A stretch of 64,000 bases of DNA from Escherichia phage vB_EcoM_LNA4. The DNA lies in sequence record MZ311864.1; one strand, 5' to 3'. Position numbers and translations under genes: made by a program. A model generated the notes under the pieces. It saw only the letters and a list, made by a program, of their open reading frames with translations, searched no databases and was not told the DNA's origin. Shown piece after piece: positions 51,560 to 64,000 of the stretch (position 1 is the stretch's first letter; the number at the start of each line of letters is the position of its first letter).

Positions 51560-51623
51560 AAACTGTGTGATATTTGCCCTTGATATTTGTCAGGGCATTT
51601 TGAACTGGAAACCAAAATGAAAA

Positions 51624-51650
51624 TCGAAATGGTTTTCGAAATGGTTTTCC
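51624..51650. repeat. tandem CGAAATGGTTTTC repeat (x2)
   Basis: cgaaatggttttcgaaatggttttcc read directly. Confidence 0.6.
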
Positions 51651-51827
51651 TTTCAGGTGTCCTGGTAAATCCATTTTATTGTGAGTTAAGATCTCAAACC
51701 CTCCGACAAATTATCTCAAATCTCCCAGCGCAACATGCTGATTGTTAAGGAAATTCACAGGCACGAATGCAGTAATTATGTCAAAATTCCAGAAATGCTA
51801 AATCCATTTTATTGGTTGTTAAGTCTG

Positions 51828-52033
51828 GGTACTCGATCACTTTTTCGATTTAGGAATCGTATTTTTTCTACACCGTTCAAAAAATTTTTCTAGGTAGAGA
51901 TCGGGTTCTCGATCGATTTTTCAAAATCGAGATCGTATTTTTTCTCGCTATCGAAAAAATTTTCGCGCCCGGTTCTCGATCGACTTTTCAGTTTCAAAAA
52001 CGTATTTTTTCTATACACGCGAAAAAATTTTTT
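51828..52033. repeat. three tandem direct repeats of about 65 bp (iteron-like)
   Basis: GGT(A/T)CTCGATC..TTTTTC....CGTATTTTTTCT......AAAAAATTTT repeated three times. Confidence 0.7.
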
Positions 52034-52408
52034 GGGATCAATAATTTTCTCACACACGCACACGCGATGTCAAGATAAATTTTTATGTTGAATGGGAAGC
52101 ATTCTCATTTAGCTTTTTGAATGATAATCATTCTCGTTTGCAGAATGACGGGCACCCCCGGTGTTTTGTACTCCGGTTTCAATGTTCCCGCTATGTCATA
52201 ATAATAGCATAGCCAGCCCCAGGATCAAGCGGCTTTACAAATCTTTACAAATCTCAAAAGTCCGAACTACCGGCGATTCACCTTCCGACCTGGCACCCGC
52301 GCCCGGTACGTTAGCCCCGCCTTTTCGCCGTGGGGTGGCGTTTTCTCTTCTGTCTGATAAATATAGCCCAGGGCCGCACGGATTGCAAGCCCCAGGACAA
52401 AATATTTT

Positions 52409-52600
52409 TTAGTCTTCCCGGCTATCCCATAACACCGCGCCGGACTCACTCACTGCCTTTGTGCCATAGTAAAACCCGGACACGCTCGCACGTTCTGCAA
52501 ACGGCAAAGGAACGATCCTAACCTGGGGCGCTCCGCGCTCACTCTCCCAGGTGTACAGGGTTACCATTGTTTCGCTTGCAACTACTTTCCCGTTTGCCAT
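52409..52600 (-). CDS. hypothetical protein (early-type gene on minus strand)
   Basis: 63 aa; GAGAGGTAAACGAAATG signature as in plus-strand early genes; TTGCAT..TATAT promoter-like upstream. Confidence 0.45.
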   Translation of the reverse strand: MANGKVVASETMVTLYTWESERGAPQVRIVPLPFAERASVSGFYYGTKAVSESGAVLWDSRED

Positions 52601-52703
52601 TTCGTTTACCTCTCTTGTGTGTGTCCTTATATAGTACACGATCCCCGCCGGGATGCAACCACACCGGGCAAAAAGATTTTTAAAATATTTGCATCCAGGG
52701 GTA

Positions 52704-52732
52704 TTGACGGTAATTAGTAAAGCGTTTACTAT
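52704..52732 (+). promoter_or_regulatory. sigma70-like promoter
   Basis: TTGACG-17 bp-TACTAT. Confidence 0.55.
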
Positions 52733-52782
52733 TCATCTCATCAGGGCGACACACCGCCGCCCACACTCAAAAGGTAAAGCAA

Positions 52783-53313
52783 ATGGACACTATCGAAACT
52801 TTCAACTACTCTTCAAACGGCATTGATTTTACTGTTAACGTTGTTAACTTTAATGAGTTTACCGGGTTCGCGGATCAATGGGAAATGACCGACGATCACG
52901 AAGGTGGGGTAACGGTTCAAAATCCGCAAGCCTGCCGAAACTCTTACAAGTACGCGATCCCGCTTCAATACAGCTTGAAAGAAAGGATCGCCAACCTGAT
53001 AAGCCAGGGTGATGAGAATCCATCGGCTAACGCTTACAAGGCCGCACAAGAGGCATTAGAGCGCGATTTAAACGCTAGTGATTATGGTTTCGTGGTAACT
53101 GCTACCGCAAACGGGATCACGCTCCTGGACGGCGAAACAATGGGGTGTAGTTTCGATTATTCATATGATGATAATGAAACGTTGATCGACGCTGCAAAAG
53201 ATGTTTACAAGGAAAACGGGATCGACGCCGAAGCCCTGGAAGCTGCAAAGAAAGCAGGCGCGGATCTGCTGTCTAATATCGACGGCCTGAAAAATATTTT
53301 AAAAGTAGCTTGA
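52783..53313 (+). CDS. acidic hypothetical protein
   Basis: 176 aa, Asp/Glu-rich; AAAGGTAAA-type SD. Confidence 0.55.
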   Translation: MDTIETFNYSSNGIDFTVNVVNFNEFTGFADQWEMTDDHEGGVTVQNPQACRNSYKYAIPLQYSLKERIANLISQGDENPSANAYKAAQEALERDLNASDYGFVVTATANGITLLDGETMGCSFDYSYDDNETLIDAAKDVYKENGIDAEALEAAKKAGADLLSNIDGLKNILKVA

Positions 53314-53339
53314 TCACCAGGTTCTGATCGGTTATCTTA
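53311..53339 (+). promoter_or_regulatory. sigma70-like promoter
   Basis: TTGATC-17 bp-TATCTT, then hairpin and SD. Confidence 0.45.
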
Positions 53340-53346
53340 CTAACAA

Positions 53347-53365
53347 GCCGGGGACGCTCCCCGGC
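53347..53365 (+). repeat. GC-rich hairpin (GCCGGGG-N-CCCCGGC family)
   Basis: GCCGGGGAcgcTCCCCGGC about 20 nt upstream of ATG. Confidence 0.7.
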
Positions 53366-53386
53366 ACTAACGAAAGGTAAAACAGA

Positions 53387-53683
53387 ATGAAAATTTCCGC
53401 TAACAAACAATTGATCGGCACTGTTAAAAATTATGTCAGGAATCCGTATGAGTTCGGCGGGTATCCGAAAATTTTGATCATGCGTGATGGCGGTTGCCTT
53501 TGTTCAAAATGCGCCCGTGAAAATTTCCCGCGCCTGCTGGAAGAGTTAAGGGATGAATGCGATCCGGCCTGGATGCCTGCCGGGGTAGATGTTTATTGGG
53601 AAGGGGCGGATCTACCGTGTGATCATTGTAACACCCCGATCCCTAGCGCCTATGGCGATCCGGAAGATGACACCGAAGAATAA
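53387..53683 (+). CDS. hypothetical Cys-containing protein
   Basis: 98-aa ORF with promoter/hairpin/SD. Confidence 0.5.
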   Translation: MKISANKQLIGTVKNYVRNPYEFGGYPKILIMRDGGCLCSKCARENFPRLLEELRDECDPAWMPAGVDVYWEGADLPCDHCNTPIPSAYGDPEDDTEE

Positions 53684-53692
53684 AATTAATTG

Positions 53693-53722
53693 TTGACGCT
53701 GGCTAATGTCTGGGGCTATAAT
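53693..53722 (+). promoter_or_regulatory. sigma70-like promoter
   Basis: TTGACG-17/18 bp-(C)TATAAT. Confidence 0.55.
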
Positions 53723-53773
53723 CTCCGGACATTGACAAGCGAAACAAACAACCACACTAAACGAGGTTACACC

Positions 53774-54103
53774 ATGAATAACTATTTCAATTCCCGCGCC
53801 CTGGCTCGTACTGCTGCAAAATCAAACGGTGGCAAAGTGATCGACAACGGCACCGCCGCACCTACTGGTAAACGTTGGCAAGTGATCCCCGGCGTTATGG
53901 TTGAAGCAATCCAGGACACCGCCGATCAACGTGCTGAAATGGAAAGCGCCCCGATTGTTACGCTGGAAGTAAAAACAGGTTATCGCAACCGTAAAGCGGT
54001 GCGTGTCTCTTATGTACACGATGCAAACGGCAAGCCGATCCCAGTGATGCACAAACGATCCCAGGTTGCCGCCCGGTTAGCTGCTCATATGGCGCGTAGC
54101 TGA
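53774..54103 (+). CDS. hypothetical protein
   Basis: 109 aa from ATG after ACGAGGT SD, downstream of promoter. Confidence 0.5.
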   Translation: MNNYFNSRALARTAAKSNGGKVIDNGTAAPTGKRWQVIPGVMVEAIQDTADQRAEMESAPIVTLEVKTGYRNRKAVRVSYVHDANGKPIPVMHKRSQVAARLAAHMARS

Positions 54104-54204
54104 TGACCTGGGGGCAAATGGTTAGCGATCCTTTCTTGTGTGTGATGGGGATCATTCTGATCGGCGTGATGATAAAAATACTTCTCACACTGCCGAAAAT
54201 ATAA

Positions 54205-54234
54205 TTGACAAGCGCCGGGAATCCGGCGCATAAT
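54205..54234 (+). promoter_or_regulatory. sigma70-like promoter
   Basis: TTGACA-18 bp-CATAAT; spacer holds a CGCCGGgaatCCGGCG palindrome. Confidence 0.55.
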
Positions 54235-54264
54235 ACCCAAACCAAAACAAACGAGGTAAACGAA

Positions 54265-54462
54265 ATGGCAAAGGCTCCACGTGTTAATAAATGGCTTTAT
54301 GAAATCATCGTACAGGAAAGAACTTGTAACGGTTGGGAAGATTCTTGCGCCGAGGCAAATTGGTCTGATGCGGTAGCAACAAAGAAAGATTATCGCCGCA
54401 ACGGGTACGAAGCCCGGATCATTGAACGCCGCACACCTAACCCGGATTATGTTGCAAAATAA
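54265..54462 (+). CDS. hypothetical protein
   Basis: 65 aa from ATG after ACGAGGTAAACGAA. Confidence 0.5.
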   Translation: MAKAPRVNKWLYEIIVQERTCNGWEDSCAEANWSDAVATKKDYRRNGYEARIIERRTPNPDYVAK

Positions 54463-54464
54463 AT

Positions 54465-54493
54465 TTGCAATCCTAAGCTAGATCGATTACATT
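54465..54493 (+). promoter_or_regulatory. sigma70-like promoter
   Basis: TTGCAA-17 bp-TACATT. Confidence 0.45.
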
Positions 54494-54502
54494 ATAAATC
54501 AA

Positions 54503-54521
54503 GGCGGGAATAGTTCCCGCC
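54503..54521 (+). repeat. GC-rich hairpin
   Basis: GGCGGGAAtagTTCCCGCC upstream of AAAAGGTAATACAAAATG. Confidence 0.65.
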
Positions 54522-54542
54522 ACACTGAAAAGGTAATACAAA

Positions 54543-54836
54543 ATGACTACCACAAACAAAACCACTACCGCCCCAGCAAAATTTTTCCTCGCTCGTATCT
54601 ATTGCATGTATGACGGTAAAGAGTTCCCAGCCGTGGATCTGATTGTTGATCACTCCCTGGAAGATGCAACCAACGAAGCCGAAAACCGTTGCGCCGCCGC
54701 TCACTATTCCTTTTCCGATATCGACGAAGTGAACGAAAGCGGTTATTGGTCTGATTGTGGCGCTCATGTTGTACGCGTTAAATCTGTAACAGAAATTAGC
54801 GCCGCCACCTATGAAGAGATAAAAAATCTCCTGTAA
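54543..54836 (+). CDS. hypothetical protein
   Basis: 97-aa ORF. Confidence 0.5.
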   Translation: MTTTNKTTTAPAKFFLARIYCMYDGKEFPAVDLIVDHSLEDATNEAENRCAAAHYSFSDIDEVNESGYWSDCGAHVVRVKSVTEISAATYEEIKNLL

Positions 54837-54839
54837 GTA

Positions 54840-54868
54840 TTGACACCCCAGCGAGTAAAGCGGATAAT
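54840..54868 (+). promoter_or_regulatory. sigma70-like promoter
   Basis: TTGACA-17 bp-GATAAT. Confidence 0.6.
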
Positions 54869-54877
54869 TCTATTCAA

Positions 54878-54895
54878 GCCGGGACGGTTCCCGGC
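54878..54895 (+). repeat. GC-rich hairpin
   Basis: GCCGGGAcggtTCCCGGC. Confidence 0.65.
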
Positions 54896-54915
54896 ACTGA
54901 CCGAAGGTAAAGAAA

Positions 54916-55314
54916 ATGGCAAAGTTTAAAACCTCAATCAATCTTTATGACGCTGTGAACCGCCTGAAAGAAGTTTCACGCGAAAATCAAACCGGGGATT
55001 TTTTCGTGGTTGTTGACTCCTTTGATTTTGGGCGTGATGTTAACGGAAACACGATCAACAAATACCGCGCCACGCTCCACCGTGGGGATCTGCTATCCGT
55101 GCAAAATGGTTATACTGGTTTCGGGGTCACCGTCCTGGAATCACCACGCCGCCGCGAACAATCCCACAATGAAGGGCAAAGCGCCGCGCTTTACTGGTTG
55201 GAAAAAATCGGTTATGATCTGGCTTATGAGTCTATGACTTATGCGCCCCACACCAAAAAGCAAGGCTATCGCCACGTTTACCGGGTAACGAACAATTATT
55301 TAAAGGGGCTTTAA
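54916..55314 (+). CDS. hypothetical protein
   Basis: 132-aa ORF. Confidence 0.5.
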   Translation: MAKFKTSINLYDAVNRLKEVSRENQTGDFFVVVDSFDFGRDVNGNTINKYRATLHRGDLLSVQNGYTGFGVTVLESPRRREQSHNEGQSAALYWLEKIGYDLAYESMTYAPHTKKQGYRHVYRVTNNYLKGL

Positions 55315-55315
55315 C

Positions 55316-55459
55316 ATGTTTAATGTCGTGGTGATTAATAAGAAAACGGGTAAAAAAGTGGTGATGAATCGATCCCCGTTGTCACACGGTGAAGCCTGCG
55401 CTATGCTGTCAAAAATCACTCGTTACCCGTGGCGGGTTGAAAAAATAGAAAGTATTTAA
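55316..55459 (+). CDS. small hypothetical protein (47 aa)
   Basis: ATG 1 nt after previous stop; not in ORF track (short). Confidence 0.35.
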   Translation: MFNVVVINKKTGKKVVMNRSPLSHGEACAMLSKITRYPWRVEKIESI

Positions 55460-55471
55460 AGGCGGTGTGAA

Positions 55472-55657
55472 ATGGTTGTAAGCATGGATAACGGGCAAGT
55501 ATTGACGATCTTTAATTCTGCAAGCCGCACAATTGAGGACGTAAAGCAAGAGGCAAGCCAACGGATCGACAACCTAAAGATCCCCGGCAAGCTGTTAGAT
55601 GATAGCCTGAAAGTGATCTCCGCTTTCGATTCTTTTGGGAAAGAAATCACTAAATAG
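55472..55657 (+). CDS. hypothetical protein
   Basis: 61-aa ORF. Confidence 0.45.
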   Translation: MVVSMDNGQVLTIFNSASRTIEDVKQEASQRIDNLKIPGKLLDDSLKVISAFDSFGKEITK

Positions 55658-55660
55658 TTG

Positions 55661-55689
55661 TTGACTCTTAATAGATGGGGCTTTAAGAT
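55661..55689 (+). promoter_or_regulatory. sigma70-like promoter
   Basis: TTGACT-17 bp-TAAGAT. Confidence 0.5.
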
Positions 55690-55753
55690 AAGCCCTATCA
55701 AGTAAGAGAAATAACCCGGCAATAATGCCAAACCAAACAAAAGGTAAATTATC

Positions 55754-56320
55754 ATGAATAACAAAATCACTTTCAACGATCAAGACGTAGCCGTTTTTAA
55801 CTTCCTGAAAGAAAAAGGGATTGAATTTAAAGCAGTACACGGCGGAGTCAATAATGATCCTAGTTGGGAAGCGGATCTGTTTTTCGTGTCTTTTGAGCGT
55901 AACGGCAAAATGTACCGTTCAGAATTTAAAACTGGTACAGGTCACCGCGTAGGCCGTCATAGTGGCTTAACCTCTCAGGATAAAAAAGAGCTTGATAAAG
56001 TTGGCGCACAAATCGCCATCGTAGATCAAAAGCACTGGACACGCGACGATTACAAGCGTAATGATAATAAAGCTATGTCTTTTGGTTATCGTGTTTACGT
56101 TGCGACACCTTGCGCCGCAAACGTGCTTTACTGCCTGCTGTCTGATATGTCTTTTGGTGATGAAACTCATGCTGATTTTTGCGCTAATATGGGCTATGAT
56201 GAGGACAGCCGCAAAGGTTTAGAAATGTATCTCGAATGTCAGAAAGTAGGACAGGAGATCCGCAAAATCTTTACAGGTGAGGAACTGGAAGCCCTGCGCG
56301 AAATGTTAGAGGATTATTAA
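55754..56320 (+). CDS. hypothetical protein
   Basis: 188-aa ORF with AAAAGGTAAATTATC SD. Confidence 0.5.
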   Translation: MNNKITFNDQDVAVFNFLKEKGIEFKAVHGGVNNDPSWEADLFFVSFERNGKMYRSEFKTGTGHRVGRHSGLTSQDKKELDKVGAQIAIVDQKHWTRDDYKRNDNKAMSFGYRVYVATPCAANVLYCLLSDMSFGDETHADFCANMGYDEDSRKGLEMYLECQKVGQEIRKIFTGEELEALREMLEDY

Positions 56321-56323
56321 ACC

Positions 56324-56671
56324 GTGTTTAAAATCCTGTTTTTGGTGGCTGCTGCTGCTATCTACTGGAAGATCCCCGCTAGACTATGGCGGGGAGTTCT
56401 CTGGATTTACTACGAATACAGGATCGGCAAAGTGTATCACTATATAGAATATAAGTTTCACGGGAACCATTACCACACCCGGCGATCCGGGGCATTAAAT
56501 GATCTTGAGGGTAACGGGCTATTGTGTGAGGTGAAAAAGCGAGGCGGCAAAATCACTTATCACAAAGAAGGAACAAAAGAGCAAATCACCGAGATCATAG
56601 AGTGGCGAGCTAATGAGCTAGCAGAAAAACAAGGCCGGATCATTCAACATGCACACAACAAACGAAAATAA
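56324..56671 (+). CDS. hypothetical protein with N-terminal hydrophobic segment
   Basis: 115-aa ORF, GTG start. Confidence 0.45.
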   Translation: MFKILFLVAAAAIYWKIPARLWRGVLWIYYEYRIGKVYHYIEYKFHGNHYHTRRSGALNDLEGNGLLCEVKKRGGKITYHKEGTKEQITEIIEWRANELAEKQGRIIQHAHNKRK

Positions 56672-56685
56672 AACGAGGGTTTAAA

Positions 56686-56889
56686 ATGCGAAATATTGAG
56701 AAGATGACAAGCAAGCGTGATCGCCTGGCTTACGGTGAAGTAAACGAGCGCCGCCAACGTAACGACAAACTACACAAGCCGGAAAGGGTCGCTAAAACCT
56801 GGACGCCTGACCGTTATGATCCAAACCTCAATAAAAGGTTAGCGGATCGCAAACGTGCTTTACAGTGGCAAGCCGTACAAAATGACTAA
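56686..56889 (+). CDS. small basic protein
   Basis: 67 aa, Arg/Lys-rich. Confidence 0.45.
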   Translation: MRNIEKMTSKRDRLAYGEVNERRQRNDKLHKPERVAKTWTPDRYDPNLNKRLADRKRALQWQAVQND

Positions 56890-56894
56890 ACAAA

Positions 56895-56921
56895 GGCCGG
56901 GATAATTTCCCGGCTTTTTTC
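56895..56921 (+). terminator. rho-independent terminator
   Basis: GGCCGGGAtaatTTCCCGGC then TTTTTT. Confidence 0.75.
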
Positions 56922-57138
56922 TATGCAAAAAAGTGAATTTAAAGAGTTCTCAGGCAGGCAATGCACTTGCCAGGGTTCGACGTTGAAGCGCTTAGAGAGG
57001 CTTACAGGAGCTTTAAAGCGGTATCACGGCACCGCGCCACGCTCAAAAGGCCTTAAATTTAGTCACAAGGTGAAACTATTTGCATATGATTGAATGCTTA
57101 TGCAAAACAGTGAATATTGTAAAGATTTAATAATTTTC

Positions 57139-57166
57139 TTGCGTCCTGGCGTGAATCTGTTAATAT
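57139..57166 (+). promoter_or_regulatory. sigma70-like promoter
   Basis: TTGCGT-16 bp-TAATAT. Confidence 0.5.
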
Positions 57167-57218
57167 TTAACACGTAGGGCGACATAGTGAAGCCCACACA
57201 ATCAAAAGGTAAATTATC

Positions 57219-57509
57219 ATGTGTAAAGTAATGAATGCTCTGACTAAAAACGCCCTAGAAAACAAATACCTGGGCAAAATGGTTTATCATAATTATGGTC
57301 AAATCGGGTTCGGTGTGGTCACCGGGATCGATGACCGTGATCCCACAAAATTACGTTTACGCGTGAAGTTTACCCGCAATAATACCCCGGCGCATATCCA
57401 GAAATATGACAACCGCGCGGATCGTGTTCGTTGCCTCCTGCCTCAATCGGTCACCGTGTCCCGTGTGCGTTATGAGGATTACAACCGCACAAACCAGATC
57501 AAGAAATAG
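57219..57509 (+). CDS. hypothetical protein
   Basis: 96-aa ORF. Confidence 0.5.
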   Translation: MCKVMNALTKNALENKYLGKMVYHNYGQIGFGVVTGIDDRDPTKLRLRVKFTRNNTPAHIQKYDNRADRVRCLLPQSVTVSRVRYEDYNRTNQIKK

Positions 57510-57510
57510 C

Positions 57511-57538
57511 TTGCAATCTGCGCCGCTTATGGTATCTT
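57511..57538 (+). promoter_or_regulatory. sigma70-like promoter
   Basis: TTGCAA-16 bp-TATCTT. Confidence 0.5.
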
Positions 57539-57585
57539 TATTCATAGGCGGCAATAATGCCACCACTTAAAGAGAGGTAAACAAA

Positions 57586-57687
57586 ATGTTAGATTATACA
57601 AACCTTTGGTGTGTGGCTGCTCTTGTATCTTTCATCGTTGCGGCTTGCTCTGTGGTCGCTATCCATATTATTTTAGAGGATCGTTAA
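57586..57687 (+). CDS. small hydrophobic peptide (33 aa)
   Basis: GAGAGGTAAACAAAATG then a single hydrophobic helix; not in ORF track (short). Confidence 0.35.
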   Translation: MLDYTNLWCVAALVSFIVAACSVVAIHIILEDR

Positions 57688-57688
57688 T

Positions 57689-57907
57689 ATGTTCGGGTTT
57701 ATCGTTATGGCCTGCCATATCTCGCTAACTTCAATGAAGTTAGATTGTAGCTGGGATGTTAAAAAAACATTCCAAACAGAACAGGCTTGCAACGTGTACG
57801 AAAACGAATACACGCTAGGCAAAGGCGAGCAGATCGGGGTCTGTGATGAGTTAGATCCTGGCGTTAAAGAAGGCGATAAACGCCCTATTCTCACCCTCAA
57901 AAAGTAA
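57689..57907 (+). CDS. small secreted/membrane Cys-containing protein
   Basis: 72 aa with N-terminal hydrophobic segment. Confidence 0.45.
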   Translation: MFGFIVMACHISLTSMKLDCSWDVKKTFQTEQACNVYENEYTLGKGEQIGVCDELDPGVKEGDKRPILTLKK

Positions 57908-57916
57908 GGGTTTACC

Positions 57917-58102
57917 ATGTTTGAAGTATTCGCCGGAATGTGTTTTTATGCCGCTATGGGCTTGCAACGTTGCGATGATTTCATCGTTGAATCATACGAC
58001 GATCAATTAACCTGTGAGATCGTAGCCAATGACTACCGCACGGATCGCCGCTGGATTAATCCCGCTTGCATCCCATCGCCGGAAGTTGAACCAATGCCAT
58101 AA
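57917..58102 (+). CDS. hypothetical protein
   Basis: 61-aa ORF. Confidence 0.4.
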   Translation: MFEVFAGMCFYAAMGLQRCDDFIVESYDDQLTCEIVANDYRTDRRWINPACIPSPEVEPMP

Positions 58103-58109
58103 AATAAAT

Positions 58110-58138
58110 TTGACAACGGGGAACCGTTGATCAATAAT
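58110..58138 (+). promoter_or_regulatory. sigma70-like promoter
   Basis: TTGACA-17 bp-AATAAT. Confidence 0.55.
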
Positions 58139-58148
58139 TACCAGACAA

Positions 58149-58169
58149 GGCCGGGAGCGGTTCCCGGTC
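58149..58169 (+). repeat. GC-rich hairpin
   Basis: GGCCGGGAgcggTTCCCGGTC. Confidence 0.65.
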
Positions 58170-58186
58170 ACCTGGTGAGGTGAATC

Positions 58187-58303
58187 ATGAAAGGTTACCA
58201 AGTAGAATACACTACCGAAAACCCGGTTTACACCGAAGCGCGGATCATGTGTCGTCTGGTGTGGTTTTTCGTGATCTTCCTGCTGTTATTATCTTTATTC
58301 TAA
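58187..58303 (+). CDS. small membrane peptide (38 aa)
   Basis: Promoter, hairpin, GGTGAGGTGAATCATG; C-terminal hydrophobic helix. Confidence 0.35.
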   Translation: MKGYQVEYTTENPVYTEARIMCRLVWFFVIFLLLLSLF

Positions 58304-58318
58304 AACGAGGTTTTAAAA

Positions 58319-58660
58319 ATGGAACTGGCAAATAAATTTTTCTTCCTGGCTGGCGTATCTGACAAAGCAAAATGTGATTTTCGTCGTTTCGATGATAAAA
58401 CATTGTTGCGTTTTTGTCATGTTAATGACACTGTAAACGCTGATCGCCTGGATATCATGATCCGCACGGAAAACAGCATTGATCACGCTTCACAAAGACC
58501 TTGCAAGGCGCATTATGTATCTTATCAGCTTGAAAGTGTGAAGGGTTATGTAAAACAGGCTGATAGCCTGCCGATCCGTGATGCTCTGGACGTTTTCGCG
58601 GTAGTTGTTGAGATTGTTAATGATGTTTTTCCGGTTGACTCTGAAAATCAGATCGGCTAA
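58319..58660 (+). CDS. hypothetical protein
   Basis: 113-aa ORF. Confidence 0.45.
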   Translation: MELANKFFFLAGVSDKAKCDFRRFDDKTLLRFCHVNDTVNADRLDIMIRTENSIDHASQRPCKAHYVSYQLESVKGYVKQADSLPIRDALDVFAVVVEIVNDVFPVDSENQIG

Positions 58661-58664
58661 AGTA
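58636..58664 (+). promoter_or_regulatory. sigma70-like promoter
   Basis: TTGACT-17 bp-TAAAGT overlapping end of previous gene. Confidence 0.4.
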
Positions 58665-58673
58665 TTCTAACAG

Positions 58674-58694
58674 GCCGGGGATTGTCCCCGGTCA
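58674..58694 (+). repeat. GC-rich hairpin
   Basis: GGCCGGGGAttgTCCCCGGTC. Confidence 0.7.
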
Positions 58695-58713
58695 CAATAG
58701 AAAGGTAAATATT

Positions 58714-58947
58714 ATGGCACGTTACACTAAAACCGTGGATATCTGGGACGCTCAAACCAACGTTGCAAAATTGCAGCCGGGGCAATGGGTAGAGGCTGGC
58801 AAAGGCGGTGATCGCGGGATCTTCTGTGGTGTAAAACGCTCTGGATCTGTGGTTGTTGCCTGGAAGAATAACGCAAGCAACCATAAGCGCGGCGGGTATC
58901 GTGGCTATATTTCCGATCTGTTTTCTTATGCTAAAGTGTGGGCTTGA
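58714..58947 (+). CDS. hypothetical protein
   Basis: 77-aa ORF. Confidence 0.5.
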   Translation: MARYTKTVDIWDAQTNVAKLQPGQWVEAGKGGDRGIFCGVKRSGSVVVAWKNNASNHKRGGYRGYISDLFSYAKVWA

Positions 58948-58949
58948 TT

Positions 58950-59282
58950 ATGAAAAATAAAAATGTTTATTGGTCTTCCTCGTGCGGTCGCCTTTGTCTG
59001 ATTTTCCGTGACCGTGACCAGGTAGAAGAGATCGCCCACTCTGGGGACTGTGAAGCCTCCACCGTTGAAGCCTTGCCCTATTTCCGGGACGGCTTACAGT
59101 TTAGCGCCTACACCGATCAAATGATCCGGGATTACCTGGCCGAAACCGGGATCGAGCGTGAAGGGGTAGACGGGATCGACAACATGGATCGCCACACCCT
59201 GGAAATGTACCTGTTATGGATCGCGGCTTGCGATATGCTGGACGTGTTCAACATTGGCGATGATTACGGGGAAGATGAATAA
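58950..59282 (+). CDS. hypothetical acidic protein
   Basis: 110 aa from ATG (ORF track starts at upstream GTG). Confidence 0.45.
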   Translation: MKNKNVYWSSSCGRLCLIFRDRDQVEEIAHSGDCEASTVEALPYFRDGLQFSAYTDQMIRDYLAETGIEREGVDGIDNMDRHTLEMYLLWIAACDMLDVFNIGDDYGEDE

Positions 59283-59288
59283 AAACGC

Positions 59289-59317
59289 TTGCAAGCCAGG
59301 TGCGGATCGGTTAATAT
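59289..59317 (+). promoter_or_regulatory. sigma70-like promoter
   Basis: TTGCAA-17 bp-TAATAT. Confidence 0.55.
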
Positions 59318-59325
59318 CTTTTTGA

Positions 59326-59347
59326 GGCCGGGGAATACCTCCCCGGC
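59326..59347 (+). repeat. GC-rich hairpin
   Basis: GGCCGGGGAatacctCCCCGGC. Confidence 0.65.
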
Positions 59348-59368
59348 AAGCCAGAAAGGTAAACAAAA

Positions 59369-59758
59369 ATGCAAAATTTCATCACTATCACCAATAACGA
59401 TAAACTGCAATCTCTGATCGGTATCCTTAACGATGTTTCACCGTTTATCGTTAAAAATCTTTACGCACATTTGAAAAATGTTAAACCCGCTATTTGGTCT
59501 GCTCATTGCTATGACCAGGACGAAAGCGCGGCGGCATACATGATCGAAATGTTAAAAGATAGTATGCAACTTTGTTTATCTCAAAGCGTTATTAATGAAG
59601 TTGATAGCCGTTTATCTCTGGCTATTGAATACCAGGTGCAAGCAATGTATAATCAGTTAGACATTGAAGAGCAGCAAGATCAGGATTCATTCTGGGATCG
59701 TGCTGATGCTCAAAGCGCCTTTGATGACCGTTTAGCAATGTATGCTAACGAATACTAA
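59369..59758 (+). CDS. hypothetical acidic protein
   Basis: 129-aa ORF. Confidence 0.5.
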   Translation: MQNFITITNNDKLQSLIGILNDVSPFIVKNLYAHLKNVKPAIWSAHCYDQDESAAAYMIEMLKDSMQLCLSQSVINEVDSRLSLAIEYQVQAMYNQLDIEEQQDQDSFWDRADAQSAFDDRLAMYANEY

Positions 59759-59767
59759 ACAAAACAA

Positions 59768-59787
59768 GGCCGGGGACGTTCCCCGGC
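59768..59787 (+). repeat. GC-rich hairpin
   Basis: GGCCGGGGAcgtTCCCCGGC. Confidence 0.7.
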
Positions 59788-59808
59788 ATAATCTGAAAGG
59801 TAAAGCAA

Positions 59809-60033
59809 ATGTTAAAGAATCAAACCGGGCAAACTGAATTTTTACGCAACCTTATCGCTGGTGAAAAGGCTGTATGGTTCTGTGAAGGTGCAAACGTAGA
59901 TCCGGAAATGCGGAAAATGACCGCCACCGTGTGCAAGGCGAAACTAGGCTTTAAAATCCGTCAATCAAAAGCCCTGATCGTTACTCCTGATTCTATCCCG
60001 CAAGCAATCATCATTATTGAGCGTATATCATGA
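59809..60033 (+). CDS. hypothetical protein
   Basis: 74-aa ORF. Confidence 0.45.
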   Translation: MLKNQTGQTEFLRNLIAGEKAVWFCEGANVDPEMRKMTATVCKAKLGFKIRQSKALIVTPDSIPQAIIIIERIS

Positions 60034-60257
60034 AAAAAGTAATTTTTGATAACAAGAAAAACACGGTAACCGCTCAAAAGGTCGGGGAGTATATCGAACT
60101 TTCGGATCTGTATAGTGACGCGCCGATCCGCTTGTCACCTGCTGAATATAAAAATGCTGATTTGGTTAAACATGTTGTCGCTATGGAGTTCGAATTTTTC
60201 GAATATCTAGCCTCTTTTGAGGATGATTTTAATAGTGATGGGCTTTACGGCGCATGA
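60030..60257 (+). CDS. hypothetical acidic protein
   Basis: 75-aa ORF, ATGA overlap with previous gene. Confidence 0.45.
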   Translation: MKKVIFDNKKNTVTAQKVGEYIELSDLYSDAPIRLSPAEYKNADLVKHVVAMEFEFFEYLASFEDDFNSDGLYGA

Positions 60258-60403
60258 TCATTTACGTCAACGTTTTAAACGGGAATCGTTACCGCTGGCG
60301 CGGTTCCCGTGTCCTGGCTCTGATGTCTGGTGAATGGGTTCAAAGTCAGCACTTACGCCCCGCCGATCTCTCACATTTTCCGTTTATAGGTATCAAAGAA
60401 TGA
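60254..60403 (+). CDS. small hypothetical protein (49 aa)
   Basis: ATGA overlaps at both ends; not in ORF track (short). Confidence 0.3.
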   Translation: MIIYVNVLNGNRYRWRGSRVLALMSGEWVQSQHLRPADLSHFPFIGIKE

Positions 60404-60738
60404 AATATGAAATCACCCCGGAAGATATCAAAACACGCGCCCTTGATAGCGCCCGTTACACCTTAACAAAGCGTGAAGGCCTGCAACTATTTTCAATCTG
60501 TTTTATTCATCCTGATGATCCTGATTTTCAATCTGATCCGGTTGAGTTCTGGGCTAGTAGCTGGGAAACGGCTTATGATGAGCTGATGAATAATGTAAAC
60601 ACTTTCGAATCTTACGGCCTGTCAAGTTTTAGCCAGACAGATCGCCCCCTGGAGGATGAGAACGTTAGAGCGTGGATCAACCACTACAACGCCCTTTATA
60701 ACCTCGTGTTTATTCATGGGGAGAGTAAAGAAGTGTAA
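60400..60738 (+). CDS. hypothetical protein
   Basis: 112 aa from ATG overlapping upstream stop. Confidence 0.45.
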   Translation: MKYEITPEDIKTRALDSARYTLTKREGLQLFSICFIHPDDPDFQSDPVEFWASSWETAYDELMNNVNTFESYGLSSFSQTDRPLEDENVRAWINHYNALYNLVFIHGESKEV

Positions 60739-60745
60739 AGAGCTA

Positions 60746-60774
60746 TTGACGTGGTGATCTGCCTATAGTAATAT
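60746..60774 (+). promoter_or_regulatory. sigma70-like promoter
   Basis: TTGACG-17 bp-TAATAT. Confidence 0.55.
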
Positions 60775-60830
60775 TTATCTCGTAGGGCAAACAAACGAAA
60801 TCACACAAAACAGACTAAGAGGTAAATCAA

Positions 60831-61196
60831 ATGTTAAACGCTAAAACTGTTGCTCATGTTGGTTGGGATTCAAACGCGTATGAGGGTGAGTGGTGCGAAG
60901 ATTACCGCCGTACTGAATGGGCTTACAAAATCCAGATCGAACTGGTAGACGGTTCACGCTTTTACCTTGATCAATCCTTACTGACTTCTGAAACTCATGA
61001 TTTTGAAGAAATCAAAGCTATTCAGGATCGCCGTGTAGCTCGCATTGAAAAACATTTGGCCGCTGGCGGTTCACTGAATGAAAAACACTGGTACGAAACC
61101 GATCCGGCTTATGGCTCTGAAGCTTATCAGCGCCTGGATGATATGGGAGAGTTTAAAGCCCGTGAAGAAAAAGAGTTTCAACTGACCGGACGTTAA
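60831..61196 (+). CDS. hypothetical protein
   Basis: 121-aa ORF. Confidence 0.5.
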   Translation: MLNAKTVAHVGWDSNAYEGEWCEDYRRTEWAYKIQIELVDGSRFYLDQSLLTSETHDFEEIKAIQDRRVARIEKHLAAGGSLNEKHWYETDPAYGSEAYQRLDDMGEFKAREEKEFQLTGR

Positions 61197-61212
61197 CAGA
61201 TTAAAAGGCGCT

Positions 61213-61241
61213 TGCAATGGTGAGCGCTTTTTGATAAATTA
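61213..61241 (+). promoter_or_regulatory. sigma70-like promoter
   Basis: TTGCAA-17 bp-TAAATT. Confidence 0.45.
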
Positions 61242-61272
61242 ATGTCTCACCAAACAAATGAGGTAAACGGCA

Positions 61273-61596
61273 ATGACTAAAACAGAATTTTTCGCAATCA
61301 TCACCGATCATCTGAAAAGACTTAACGGTCAATTTAACGCTTTCGGTGAATATGTCGCCTTTGACGTTCCAAAATACACCGCCGCCGATCTTGCTCCTTA
61401 TGAGTTCCACGAAGATCCGGAAAATTACGCTAAATGGAAAGCAGAAAACCCGGATTATCCCTGGGTAGCTCATGCGTCAGGCTATACTATGAAAAATTGC
61501 TGGTTAGTCGGCCTTATCAATCATCGCTCATATGAAGCCGCCACCAAACAAGCGAAGATTTTCGCACGTTGGATCGCTGAATACCAAACCAAATAA
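61273..61596 (+). CDS. hypothetical protein
   Basis: 107-aa ORF. Confidence 0.5.
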   Translation: MTKTEFFAIITDHLKRLNGQFNAFGEYVAFDVPKYTAADLAPYEFHEDPENYAKWKAENPDYPWVAHASGYTMKNCWLVGLINHRSYEAATKQAKIFARWIAEYQTK

Positions 61597-61604
61597 ACCC
61601 ACCG

Positions 61605-61621
61605 GGGGCGCTAGTCGCCCC
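61605..61621 (+). repeat. GC-rich hairpin
   Basis: GGGGCGctagtCGCCCC upstream of GAGAGGTAAACAAAATG. Confidence 0.6.
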
Positions 61622-61645
61622 GCTATCATATGAGAGGTAAACAAA

Positions 61646-62011
61646 ATGGATCTTAAGAAAATCAATCTTTTAGCCCTGAAAAAGGGTGATATGCTGTTTC
61701 GTGGGTCTTTGTGTGAAGTCCTGGAAATATCAGCGCCGTTTATGCGTGGCTATGGTTATGATAACCATTATTACAAGGCCGAAACGGTAGCGATCAAATG
61801 TCAAGCCGTATATGATTACGATGTTAACTATTCAAAAGAAAGCGGCAAGCCATTAACGCCCCGTGAATATGTTTTTGATTATCCGATTGAATCACAAGTG
61901 ATGATCGTTACATCTGGCGAAACGGTCACCGTGACAAGCGCTACCGGGAATTTTGACGATAAAACAGGTCATTATCTGTTACCCGGTCAAACAATTAATG
62001 TTATTGAGTGA
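61646..62011 (+). CDS. hypothetical protein
   Basis: 121-aa ORF. Confidence 0.5.
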   Translation: MDLKKINLLALKKGDMLFRGSLCEVLEISAPFMRGYGYDNHYYKAETVAIKCQAVYDYDVNYSKESGKPLTPREYVFDYPIESQVMIVTSGETVTVTSATGNFDDKTGHYLLPGQTINVIE

Positions 62012-62017
62012 TGACAA

Positions 62018-62281
62018 GTGATTAACCTTGTTTATCATGTGAGCAAAACCAACATTAGCCGGGCTATCTGCCTGGCTTGCTTGTTTGCTGTTTTGTCAAA
62101 TGTTTTTTACGGTTGGCTGGCCTGCCTTGTGTTAAGTGACGCAACCGCCCAGACAGTTAACACCATGATCGATGTTTTGCAGCTTGCTTTATATTGTGGT
62201 GTAAAGCTGTACAGATTTAAACGCCTGGACCGTTACGATCTACCTTTCATCATTGGCGGATCACTGGCTATTATGTTGTAA
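62018..62281 (+). CDS. membrane protein
   Basis: 87 aa, GTG start, hydrophobic helices; last gene before terminator. Confidence 0.45.
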   Translation: MINLVYHVSKTNISRAICLACLFAVLSNVFYGWLACLVLSDATAQTVNTMIDVLQLALYCGVKLYRFKRLDRYDLPFIIGGSLAIML

Positions 62282-62285
62282 TCTA

Positions 62286-62308
62286 GGCCGGGATTATTCC
62301 CGGCTTTT
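62286..62308 (+). terminator. rho-independent terminator closing the early block
   Basis: GGCCGGGAttatTCCCGGC then TTTT. Confidence 0.7.
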
Positions 62309-62428
62309 GCATATCATAACCCACACCAAACCACAACCCAAAATCTTTACCCGCTTTTATGTTGGTTGCAATATCGCAACTGAGAATTATTCTCACCAAT
62401 CCCGTTGGCAATTATGCAATAAAGTGAA

Positions 62429-62448
62429 TTTAAAGAGATCTCTTTAAA
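62429..62448. repeat. 20-bp perfect palindrome (operator-like)
   Basis: TTTAAAGAGATCTCTTTAAA is its own reverse complement. Confidence 0.8.
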
Positions 62449-63406
62449 GACATACAACGGCAAGCCTAACAGATAAACCCTCTCAAAACGCGTTATATTG
62501 CGTTTAATCGTGTATCTTTACCCGCCTTTGACTCACTCACACCCCAAAAATGATAACGCAGGTTATCAAGTGAATAAACACCGTGTTTTTATGCAAATTG
62601 AGTGAATACGAAGCAAAAACCCTGAAATGATAACTTTTCTCATCTAACCCTTTGTGTGAACTGCCTTTTTTGAGCATAGAAATCATCTTTTGTCAAATAA
62701 AATATCGTTCGCGTAATCGTGGGGAGTGGCGCGAGCGGAGCGAGCGACACAATAACACGAAGGGTAACTCAAACGATAATAAATATCGTTTTCGTTCGCG
62801 TTATCGTGGCTCGTTAGCGCTATTGTCGCATAGCGATTCAATGTTACACATTGAACCCGTAAACGGGCAAGGCTAAGCGTTAACAGACAGGATGACTAGA
62901 ATGATGAATAATTAACAATGCAACTATTACATAGTTGAAGTATTTTATAACCTCGCCACGATAACACCGATTAGCTGATCGCTAATCGCCCTCGTGTTAT
63001 TGTGTCGCCAGGTTATGAAGATCAAAGGCATTTAATTAGCCTTTAATGGTTGACAAACCATGATTAATAGAACTGTAAACCAGGCCGCTGGCCTGCTAAT
63101 TGCTGGTTTTCTTGAGCATGAAAAGGTGTGCGAAGCTGGCTAACTGTCAAGTGTTTTATTGATAGGAAAAGTCTATTAAAGCCAGGCGTAGCAAGGGCTA
63201 AACGAGAATTGTTATCATGTGGCTAAATGCTCAAGATAGGTAGAATTGCTAAACACATATTTCCCTCTGTGTCAAGCTTTTTGTGGCAAATTTACAAAAT
63301 ATTTTCCATTTGAGAATGGTTTTCATTTCGAAACTGAAATCGAAATCGTATTCAGAATGATTATCATTTGCATTCTCATCGACAAAACACCCCACAAAGT
63401 GAATAA

Positions 63407-63425
63407 TAACAGGTGTAAACTGTCA
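63407..63425. repeat. 19-bp direct repeat, copy 1
   Basis: TAACAGGTGTAAACTGTCA. Confidence 0.8.
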
Positions 63426-63598
63426 TGCTGGTAACATGTAGCAGGCTATTGGTTGCTGTCTGGTATGGTTCACTGATGCAATGATAACATATGTGACTAT
63501 ATGGCCTGTTGCCCGGTGACCTCTGGTGCGTATAACGTGTATTATGTTAAATAGAGACATTCACACAAATATAACCAAGTCAATAGCAAATCGTGCTG

Positions 63599-63617
63599 TA
63601 ACAGGTGTAAACTGTCA
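63599..63617. repeat. 19-bp direct repeat, copy 2
   Basis: TAACAGGTGTAAACTGTCA, identical to copy at 63407. Confidence 0.8.
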
Positions 63618-64000
63618 CATTGCTAATAGTTGCACTTGTAATCATTAGTTTCGTTGCGAAATCATCATGCAATCATCGTGCCAAGAACTCGATGGGGTCT
63701 CGTGGTCAGACCTCTCAGATATTTTGTAAAGATCCTTGACAACCCGGAGGGGCTGTGATTGTCCGTCTAACACATCAGACATAGAGACAACAGATATTTT
63801 CGTCCCCAAGAGATACAGACCAGGGGCCTCTTTTATTTCCCTCCGGGCGGGGGAGGGGGTGGGTTTTAGTTAGTGATGAGCCACTGACAAGGCGATATGC
63901 TTATGCTGTAAACATGTTGTGTGGTATGTGTTTATGGAATGGCGTTTTATAGACATGACAATTTGTTAATGAAATGTACACTATGGTAGGCAGGGGCGGT

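Follow-up and report, generated by a model that had tools for sequence, protein, structure and literature searches.

A repeated promoter and stem-loop cassette in a hyperplastic, presumably early small-gene region of Escherichia phage vB_EcoM_LNA4

Promoter(early)-stem-loop cassettes (PeSLs) of T4-like phages run from an upstream stop codon in AT-rich sequence through a sigma70 promoter, a stem-loop and a Shine-Dalgarno (SD) sequence to a start codon (PMC2839356, PMC4122927). Their copies gather in ORFan-rich hyperplastic regions and at indels (Arbiol et al. 2010, PMC2839356; Comeau et al. 2014, PMC4122927), and in RB49 and phi1 the stem is most common in the promoter spacer or over the -10 box (PMC2839356, PMC4122927). 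In the Vequintavirinae, the searched passages of the reports on Certrevirus CB7 and CR3 (PMC7344957) and on rV5 (PMC3606486) describe host-like promoters clustered among short early open reading frames (ORFs), with a Certrevirus promoter consensus that carries an UP-like AAAA(N3)TG extension (PMC7344957). Those passages mention promoters and separate terminators only, and not a hairpin, a special SD, cassette repeats or a link to gene exchange. Here, an array of 29 small genes is described in Escherichia phage vB_EcoM_LNA4 (sequence record MZ311864.1), at positions 52700–62310 of the 64,000-nt stretch analysed (the window). The array is probably a hyperplastic, presumably immediate-early Seunavirus region built from one repeated regulatory cassette that also serves gene exchange. 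In the open-access literature searched, composite promoter/stem-loop cassettes for small accessory genes are described only for T4-like phages, and no description of a Vequintavirinae cassette family or of its link to gene exchange was found.

The window, Enterobacter phage EC152, Cronobacter phage GAP31, Escherichia phage 4MG and Salmonella phage PVP-SE1 are Seunavirus members of the subfamily Vequintavirinae. The array region is 99.1% identical to EC152, 96.5% to GAP31, 92% to 4MG and, in patches, ~84% to PVP-SE1 and its relatives. Klebsiella phage BIS47 (Mydovirus) has parts of the region in common with the window. Almost all genes of the region are labelled hypothetical protein in the relatives' records, of which the PVP-SE1 record also annotates two promoters and one terminator here. 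Gene presence and absence were compared in eight relatives, including EC152, GAP31, 4MG, PVP-SE1, EspYZU14 and BIS47.

The 29 ORFs encode proteins of 33–188 aa and lie on the plus strand of this 9.6-kb stretch, between 52783 and 62281 (Table 1). An intergenic gap of at least 49 nt precedes 16 of them; the other 13 overlap or abut the previous gene and are translationally coupled. The gaps hold 16 cassettes of approximately 50–95 bp that serve all 29 genes, each preceding a run of one to five, and 14 have a sigma70-type promoter. A cassette opens with the upstream gene's stop codon in an AT-rich context and continues with a -35 box (TTGACA, TTGACG, TTGACT or TTGCAA), a 16–18-nt spacer, a -10 box and a stem-loop; its 3′ part is an A/C-rich leader with (A/G)(A/G)AGGTAAA 4–6 nt before the ATG. 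TTG-anchored sites that match at least 8 of 12 consensus positions are found in 13 of the 16 intergenic regions (0.9 ± 0.9 in shuffled sequences), before one of the 13 coupled genes, which is the chance level, and in ~6% of background windows. The fourteenth promoter (TTGCGT-16-TAATAT), that of g13, is weaker; it is conserved and has a paralogue in the g26 promoter.

The ribosome-binding signature is specific to the array. All 14 plus-strand copies of AGGTAA-N3-8-ATG in the window fall within 52.7–62.3 kb, and the single minus-strand copy, at 52611, belongs to the divergent gene at 52409–52600. The motif GGAG-N4-10-ATG is found 51 times on the minus strand in 1–44 kb, 11 times on the plus strand in 44–52.7 kb and once in the array. 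Another 43 kb, taken from the near-identical EC152, has three AGGTAA-N3-8-ATG matches over both strands, which is the chance level, and no GCCGGG-family hairpin, despite a cluster of small genes there. Distinct GC hairpins (stem of at least 6 bp with at least 5 GC pairs) number 11 in the 9.6 kb of the array versus 17 in the other 54 kb, and GCCGGG(G)...(C)CCCGGC is common to 9 of the 11. A repeat finder returned a 43-nt hairpin-SD-ATG family (D1) with six copies, and families D2 and D5 that reach into the first codons. The initial annotation had proposed about 28 small genes with a uniform SD, and both points held: EC152 annotates 28 coding sequences over the same stretch. Its sigma70 promoters and GC hairpins are likewise real, but promoters do not stand before nearly every ORF and hairpins occupy 11 sites rather than one for each gene. 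The claim that each gene has its own promoter was not upheld, with 16 genes behind a cassette and 13–14 of these with a promoter.

Two classes of hairpin are distinguished by position. In class A (g2, g6, g7, g17, g19 and g21), the stem lies 8–10 nt past the -10 box and 17–22 nt before the ATG. The g22 and g28 cassettes have a class A hairpin, 21–24 nt before the ATG, and an SD, and are without promoter. In class B, the stem lies in the spacer (g5, also g17), around the -10 box (g3 and g10) or around the -35 box (g27). No U-tract follows any of the eight class A-type hairpins, where sequences such as ACTAAC, ACACTG and ATAATC are found. A T-run follows the stem only at T1 (56895–56921), T2 (62286–62308) and the g27 stem; the array therefore consists of two terminated blocks, g1–g12 and g13–g29, each with several internal promoters.

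Sequence comparison points to selection on the hairpins as RNA structures. Orthologous cassettes are closest to the window in the SD (identity 0.97), the -10 box (0.90), the -35 box (0.86) and the two stem arms (0.86 and 0.92); loops (0.73) and other intergenic positions (0.77) are less well conserved. In class A cassettes of the window and the eight relatives, the distance from -10 box to hairpin is 7–10 nt and that from hairpin to ATG 17–24 nt. Compensatory C-G to G-C changes are found in the g3 stem between the window and PVP-SE1 and in the g17 stem in FENT2, and several paired positions vary among paralogous stems (for example, GCCGGGGA/TCCCCGGC versus GGCGGGAA/TTCCCGCC). When G.U wobble is allowed, 11 of 40 hairpins gain a total of 26 pairs on the sense strand, compared with only four pairs gained on the antisense strand, and the class B stems of g3, g10 and g27 form only with sense-strand wobble. 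These orthologue footprints, compensatory changes and wobble strand bias were used because MAFFT set the stems out of register. Class A stems of 6–9 bp with loops of 3–5 nt fold at -12 to -20 kcal/mol. Five of eight minimum-energy folds leave both the SD and the AUG entirely single-stranded, and in g7 and g21 a weak 3-bp stem touches the SD. The g17 leader (58170–58186) is unlike other cassettes in that its SD (GAGGTG) is paired in a second, stable stem, CACCUGGUGAGGUG, which would throttle g17 translation. An Rfam search of 51–64 kb at E ≤ 1 returned no family, and a scan of the window gave no tRNA or tmRNA.

Since the promoters match the host sigma70 consensus, host polymerase would be expected to start from them without phage factors. 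The early timing is deduced solely from these sigma70-type promoters; no Vequintavirinae transcriptome was found in the open-access literature. With a start ~7 nt past the -10 box, the class A stem would lie 0–3 nt from the transcript 5′ end and would be the first structure of the transcript. It may act mainly as a 5′-terminal stabiliser against 5′-end-dependent decay by RppH and RNase E, a type of decay from which 5′ stem-loops protect the E. coli ompA and papA mRNAs (PMC3997798). It may also act as a 3′ barrier or insulator that caps RNA arriving from upstream, and the SD would be left free. The class B structure, over the spacer, -10 or -35, would form only in read-through RNA and would thus be an overlapping attenuator and promoter, as in T4-type PeSLs; the g27 stem is a canonical terminator with the -35 box in its loop.

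The hairpins could instead be chiefly terminators or attenuators that damp upstream read-through, each cassette setting its own expression and any effect on stability being secondary. Such an explanation would fit T1, T2 and the g27 stem, which belong to the same or a similar hairpin family and have T-runs, the class B stems that enclose promoter elements, and the hairpins of g22 and g28, which lack a promoter. In a reporter assay, termination at a PeSL stem-loop was as strong as at rrnB T1 (PMC2839356). The class A stems are nevertheless poor candidates for intrinsic terminators, because they have no U-tract and are placed downstream of their own promoter. They lie at approximately +1 to +22, where an efficient terminator would kill its own transcript, and a terminator of upstream RNA does not need the fixed 8–10-nt spacing from the -10 box. 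Termination as the chief role is accordingly considered unlikely.

One stem sequence in 9 of the 11 hairpins, at a uniform distance from a uniform SD, would also suit a single trans-acting factor. The hairpins would then be sites for an RNase that cuts polycistronic early RNA into stable monocistronic units, like RNase III in the early region of T7, or for an RNA-binding phage regulator that shuts off the whole array. The membership of g12 in the T7 gene 1.1 family adds an early-region analogy only. The stems are 6–9 bp, too short for RNase III substrates, and the irregular RNase III-type stem of ~20 bp is not seen. Their 3–5-nt loops are poorly conserved, the stem sequences vary with compensation, and Pfam and PHROG searches gave no candidate RNase or RNA-binding domain among the array proteins. 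On balance, a factor-binding role is highly improbable, and 5′-terminal stabilisation is preferred for the class A stems.

Gene content of the array is a mosaic over the eight relatives, which supports the cassette-like modularity and gene swapping proposed in the initial annotation. Genes g5/g6, g8, g19, g21, g24, g26, g27, g28 and g29 are variably present, absent or replaced. One unrelated gene takes the place of the g5+g6 block in PVP-SE1-type relatives, which also lack g19, so that its cassette directly drives the g20 orthologue. In 4MG, EspYZU14 and BIS47, an unrelated 86-aa gene lies behind the g21 cassette. BLAST homology typically crosses the cassette to end 3–8 nt inside the coding sequence that follows, or else picks up again at the hairpin or promoter. 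Distinct breakpoints number 57; intergenic and gene-edge zones, which cover 22.6% of the array length, hold 45 of them (p = 3e-19). Breakpoint clustering alone is no proof of a role in recombination, because selection against broken genes gives the same pattern.

Two individual junctions are more telling than the clustering. The PVP-SE1 cassette before the g7 orthologue equals cassette 6 from the promoter through the hairpin to AAGGTAA and equals cassette 7 from there into the gene, which is what crossing-over between neighbours with loss of the intervening gene would leave. The 156-bp g8 insertion has a 10-nt direct repeat, TATTTAAAGG, on both sides (repeat family D12), and the EC152 and PVP-SE1 junctions at this site are the recombinant form. 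We propose that the cassettes, being paralogous repeats, also act as homology patches at which genes would be inserted, deleted or replaced as units.

It is also conceivable that the cassettes are ordinary operon punctuation with no part in recombination, alike through shared needs and flanking the breakpoints because gene-breaking recombinants are lost. Purifying selection on the genes is strong, and some indels use 10-nt microhomology only. The 12 breakpoints inside genes suit this explanation too. The likeness among cassettes, however, exceeds functional need, with D1 extending over 43 nt and D2 and D5 into the first codons. The usual end of homology 3–8 nt inside the next coding sequence and the chimeric PVP-SE1 cassette, the expected product of crossing-over between neighbouring cassettes, also stand against it. 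Punctuation by itself is therefore held to be doubtful.

Several points count against a cassette that both stabilises transcripts and serves gene exchange. The start sites, the timing and the RNA half-lives are deduced from sequence, as is recombination as the cause of the breakpoints and not merely their location. The MAFFT misalignment limits the stem evidence to footprints, individual compensatory changes and wobble bias. A 5′-terminal role cannot apply to the g22 and g28 hairpins, which have no promoter. Purifying selection would cluster breakpoints at gene boundaries under any recombination mechanism, and the g4 and g8 indels use microhomology at stop/start junctions, not the full cassette. 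Finally, the cassette family is nearly confined to Seunavirus and Mydovirus genomes and so is not obviously a broadly mobile element. Cassette 7 as a BLAST query matched GAP31, EC152 and 4MG only, and the exact class A motif was found in 25 IMG/VR loci, mostly ~146–148-kb genomes of this phage group; a widely mobile element was rejected on these grounds.

The array differs from the rest of the genome in GATC content and codon usage. It holds 110 GATC sites (11.4/kb), versus ~5/kb in the rest of the window and 5.2/kb in EC152 12–55 kb. The 29 coding sequences have 104 sites, where synonymous-codon shuffling gives 65.4 ± 4.8 (z = +8.1), with no excess under shuffling in other genes (z = 0.3 and 1.3), and the intergenic cassettes, with five sites in 1.5 kb, have none either. 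The excess arises through codon choice: Asp GAT is favoured before a codon starting with C (odds ratio 3.0) and Ile ATC after a codon ending in G (odds ratio 2.9), and the same ratios in other genes are 0.51 and 1.05. It is kept in the arrays of PVP-SE1, EspYZU14, BIS47 and FENT2. GGATCG is found 17 times in the array versus six in the other 51.6 kb. Relative synonymous codon usage correlates with that of E. coli at r = 0.75 for the array and 0.38–0.46 for other phage genes. Array codon usage correlates with the rest of the phage at r = 0.5–0.6, and other gene sets correlate mutually at 0.92. Preferred codons in the array are CGC, CCG, GGC, ACC, GCC, AAA and GAA.

The array could conceivably be a self-contained immediate-early expression dialect tuned to unmodified host machinery ahead of any action of phage factors, in which cassettes, host-like codons and a selected, functional, approximately twofold GATC excess that is kept across genera act together, but this reading is very unlikely. 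The GATC sites might link early-region shut-off to the Dam/SeqA methylation state after the onset of replication, or might flag the region to a GATC-directed nicking or repair activity, which would in turn promote cassette exchange. EC152 encodes a putative DNA methyltransferase outside the window (L034 18616–19296, positions 30615–31295 of the EC152 record), whose match to the phage Dam family PF05869 is below threshold (E 8e-4, 19.6 bits, cut-off 28.1) and no more than a lead for the GATC question. A RegB-like nuclease behind GGAG avoidance was considered and rejected. GGAG is found at 1.0/kb in the array versus 3.3–4.0/kb elsewhere, and its deficit under shuffling is modest in the array (z = -2.6) and at least as strong elsewhere (z = -4.0). 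The deficit is not array-specific, because codon usage and a genome-wide deficit in coding sequence account for it. Over the whole window, at least 14 palindromic hexamers are absent, including GCCGGC, GTCGAC, GAGCTC, CTCGAG, CAGCTG and GCATGC, which points to general restriction-site avoidance. CGATCG and GGATCC are likewise missing from the 64 kb; AGATCT has no copy in the array, 29 in the first 51.6 kb and 31 in the whole window.

Non-coding elements lie within and beside the array. A conserved non-coding element of ~300 nt (56922–57218) follows T1 and leads into g13. A paralogous long form stands before g26 in EC152 and BIS47 and is missing there in the window, where a fragment lies past T2 (62413–62605); paralogues of the long element are at L001 8903–9243, L007 9707–10039 and L008 10721–11064. 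Motifs of the form TATGCAA(A/T)NAGTGAAT are found at 56922, 57099 and 62413 (three versus 0.09 expected), together with the inverted TTGCATA, and these sites could be operator-like. RNAalifold gave only a weak consensus structure for the g13 leader element, and an ORF in it (56923–57093, 56 aa) was rejected as a gene, with in-frame stops in five relatives. Upstream of the array, 51600–52400 is non-coding and holds three tandem 62-nt repeats (51828–52032, spacing 67–76 nt) as well as short repeats of the AAATCGAAATGG type, found again at 63337. The EC152 record begins at window position 51838, so this region may be a genome end or origin-like. Downstream, 62310–64000 is ~1.7 kb with no convincing ORFs and 41% GC content, between T2 and convergent minus-strand genes, with a 28-nt repeat at 63407 and 63599. 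The rV5 genome map also marks a non-coding block (PMC3606486).

The array ORFs are conserved as coding sequence. Ka/Ks against diverged orthologues is 0.0–0.3 for 26 of the 29, which indicates real genes under purifying selection. No orthologue of g4 was found in the eight relatives, and its coding status has no independent evidence; g8 and g26 have near-identical orthologues only. The products had been described as mostly acidic, tiny membrane or Cys-containing proteins: 17 of 29 have an isoelectric point (pI) below 7, ten of them below 5, and four are tiny hydrophobic membrane peptides, but 12 are basic. The initial annotation saw no recognisable domains; 27 of the 29 proteins indeed had no Pfam match, and g12 is the only array protein assigned to a Pfam family. 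PHROG families contain 25 of the 29 proteins and are of unknown function, except for the membrane protein label of g17 and a DNA ligase label of g2. The ligase label, present in EC152, BIS47 and phrog_18452, is not credible and almost certainly a propagated error, because the protein is only 98 aa and Cys-rich. The g1 protein, the sole array protein modelled, gave an AlphaFold model (predicted local distance difference test score 93) with no significant fold match in the PDB; g2 and g10 had no PDB match, that of g2 being sought by sequence. No array protein matched known anti-defence proteins by sequence; only position and size link them to a possible role in host takeover or anti-defence.

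If the proposed reading is true, the same cassette device is found in an unrelated subfamily of large myoviruses, and a rule follows for locating exchange units: a cassette, one to five ORFs and the next cassette. Several phages of the group are potential agents of phage therapy or biocontrol. Applied to the array, the rule gives 29 small proteins of unknown function as a screening list for host takeover and anti-defence. With its strong promoter, putative 5′ stabiliser and efficient leader, the cassette could be a compact, portable expression element. In composition, the array stands apart from the rest of the genome by its GATC excess and host-like codons.

Table 1. Cassettes, terminators and genes of the array and the adjacent divergent gene (window positions).
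Feature	Position	Strand	Class or length	Elements or properties	Remarks
Divergent small gene	52409–52600	-	63 aa	Pfam DUF7170, E 9e-25	AGGTAAA-type SD like array
Cassette 1	52640–52782	+		TTGACG-17-TACTAT (52704–52732), weak stem GGGCG..CGCCC, SD AAAAGGTAAAG	On opposite strand, by eye, TTGCAT-16-TACTAT facing divergent gene
g1	52783–53313	+	176 aa	pI 4.1, net charge -18; phrog_4190, unknown function	First array gene; Ka/Ks 0.15–0.21; 47 homologues, phage contigs ~140–157 kb
Cassette 2	53314–53386	+	Class A	Weak promoter TTGATC-17-TATCTT (53310–53338), hairpin 53347–53365, SD GAAAGGTAAAA	
g2	53387–53683	+	98 aa	6 Cys, acidic; phrog_18452	Ka/Ks 0.04–0.16
Cassette 3	53684–53773	+	Class B	TTGACG-18-TATAAT (53693–53722), SD ACGAGGTTAC	-10 box in loop of G.U-containing stem (~53704–53734)
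g3	53774–54103	+	109 aa	Basic; phrog_8127	Ka/Ks ~0.1
g4	54103–54204	+	33 aa	Hydrophobic ORF	ATGA overlap with g3, coupled
Cassette 5	54205–54264	+	Class B	TTGACA-18-CATAAT, hairpin GCGCCGGGAATCCGGCGC (54212–54229) within spacer, SD ACGAGGTAAAC	
g5	54265–54462	+	65 aa	phrog_34889	Found in EC152, GAP31 and 4MG only
Cassette 6	54463–54542	+	Class A	TTGCAA-17-TACATT (54465–54493), hairpin 54503–54521, SD AAAAGGTAATA	
g6	54543–54836	+	97 aa	Acidic	
Cassette 7	54837–54915	+	Class A	TTGACA-17-GATAAT (54840–54868), hairpin 54878–54895, SD CGAAGGTAAAG	
g7	54916–55314	+	132 aa	Basic; phrog_4495	Ka/Ks ~0.1
g8	55316–55459	+	47 aa	156-bp insertion	Among relatives examined, GAP31 only
g9	55472–55657	+	61 aa	phrog_19614	Ka/Ks ~0.1
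Cassette 10	55658–55753	+	Class B	TTGACT-17-TAAGAT (55661–55689), SD AAAAGGTAAAT	-10 box in stem loop (~55674–55699)
g10	55754–56320	+	188 aa	phrog_4273	Ka/Ks 0.14–0.19
g11	56324–56671	+	115 aa	GTG start, basic, hydrophobic N-terminus	
g12	56686–56889	+	67 aa	Basic; T7 gene 1.1 family (Pfam Phage_1_1, E 2e-10, above cut-off)	Ka/Ks 0.03–0.19
T1	56895–56921	+		GGCCGGG-family hairpin and run of seven T	Intrinsic terminator ending sub-array g1–g12
g13 long non-coding leader	56922–57218	+		TATGCAA-type half-sites (56922, 57099), TTGCGT-16-TAATAT (57139–57166), weak stem GGGC..GCCC, SD AAAAGGTAAAT	
g13	57219–57509	+	96 aa	Basic	88–100% aa identity in 8/8 relatives; among best-conserved genes
Cassette 14	57510–57585	+		TTGCAA-16-TATCTT (57511–57538), imperfect stem GGCGGC..GCCACC, SD AGAGAGGTAAAC	Orthologous promoter annotated in PVP-SE1 record
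g14	57586–57687	+	33 aa	Membrane peptide	
g15	57689–57907	+	72 aa	4 Cys	
g16	57917–58102	+	61 aa	Acidic, 4 Cys	
Cassette 17	58103–58186	+	Classes A and B	TTGACA-17-AATAAT (58110–58138), small spacer hairpin 58114–58129, 5′ hairpin 58149–58169	Second stem sequesters SD GAGGTG
g17	58187–58303	+	38 aa	Membrane peptide; phrog_10979, membrane protein	
g18	58319–58660	+	113 aa		
Cassette 19	58635–58713	+	Class A	TTGACT-17-TAAAGT (58635–58663), hairpin 58673–58693, SD AGAAAGGTAAAT	Promoter overlaps g18 end
g19	58714–58947	+	77 aa	Basic	
g20	58950–59282	+	110 aa	pI 4.2	
Cassette 21	59283–59368	+	Class A	TTGCAA-17-TAATAT (59289–59317), hairpin 59327–59347, SD AGAAAGGTAAAC	
g21	59369–59758	+	129 aa	pI 4.2	
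Cassette 22	59759–59808	+		Hairpin 59769–59787, SD TGAAAGGTAAAG	No promoter
g22–g25	59809–60033, 60030–60257, 60254–60403, 60400–60738	+	74, 75, 49, 112 aa		Overlapping, coupled
Cassette 26	60739–60830	+		TTGACG-17-TAATAT (60746–60774), CA-rich leader, SD TAAGAGGTAAAT	Short form of g13-type long leader; EC152 ~490 nt and GAP31 ~820 nt longer here
g26	60831–61196	+	121 aa	Acidic	EC152 and GAP31 only among relatives examined
Cassette 27	61197–61272	+	Class B	TTGCAA-17-TAAATT (61212–61240), SD AATGAGGTAAAC	Terminator-like stem and T-run (61203–61232), -35 box in its loop
g27	61273–61596	+	107 aa		
Cassette 28	61597–61645	+		Hairpin GGGGCG..CGCCCC (61605–61621), SD GAGAGGTAAAC	No promoter
g28	61646–62011	+	121 aa		No PHROG match
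g29	62018–62281	+	87 aa	Membrane protein, GTG start	
T2	62286–62308	+		Same-family hairpin and T-run	Terminator ending array

Among described systems, the T7 early region (genes 0.3–1.3 with RNase III sites between them) resembles the array as a run of small genes with host polymerase and RNA structures between cistrons. The gene 1.1 family is represented by g12, and the first product is very acidic in both; g1 is like T7 Ocr by analogy only, as first gene and very acidic, and no Ocr homology was found. In T7, three promoters stand in tandem at one end and the RNase III stems are long, unlike the array with its many internal promoters and 6–9-bp stems. The ompA and papA stabilisers share a stable stem-loop a few nucleotides from the 5′ end (here predicted), followed by a ribosome-binding site. 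They are single cellular genes with measured half-lives, whereas the array element is repeated 6–8 times and its 5′ position comes from promoter geometry. The Certrevirus and rV5 reports share host-type promoters in a presumed early region of short hypothetical ORFs. Closest of all is the PeSL cassette of T4-like phages, all of whose sequence-level features are present here. The lineage differs, being Vequintavirinae and not T4-like, as does the cassette SD, which is AGGTAAA, unlike the GGAG of the rest of the genome. The class A stem, after the -10 box at the predicted transcript 5′ end and without a U-tract, has a position not described for PeSLs. PeSLs have terminator activity and mini-circles, and the array is likened to them by sequence only. 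The likeness comprises composite intergenic repeats of ~50–100 bp with the same order of components, a hyperplastic ORFan region with indels and replacements, and class B stems in the spacer or over the -10 box, as in RB49 and phi1.

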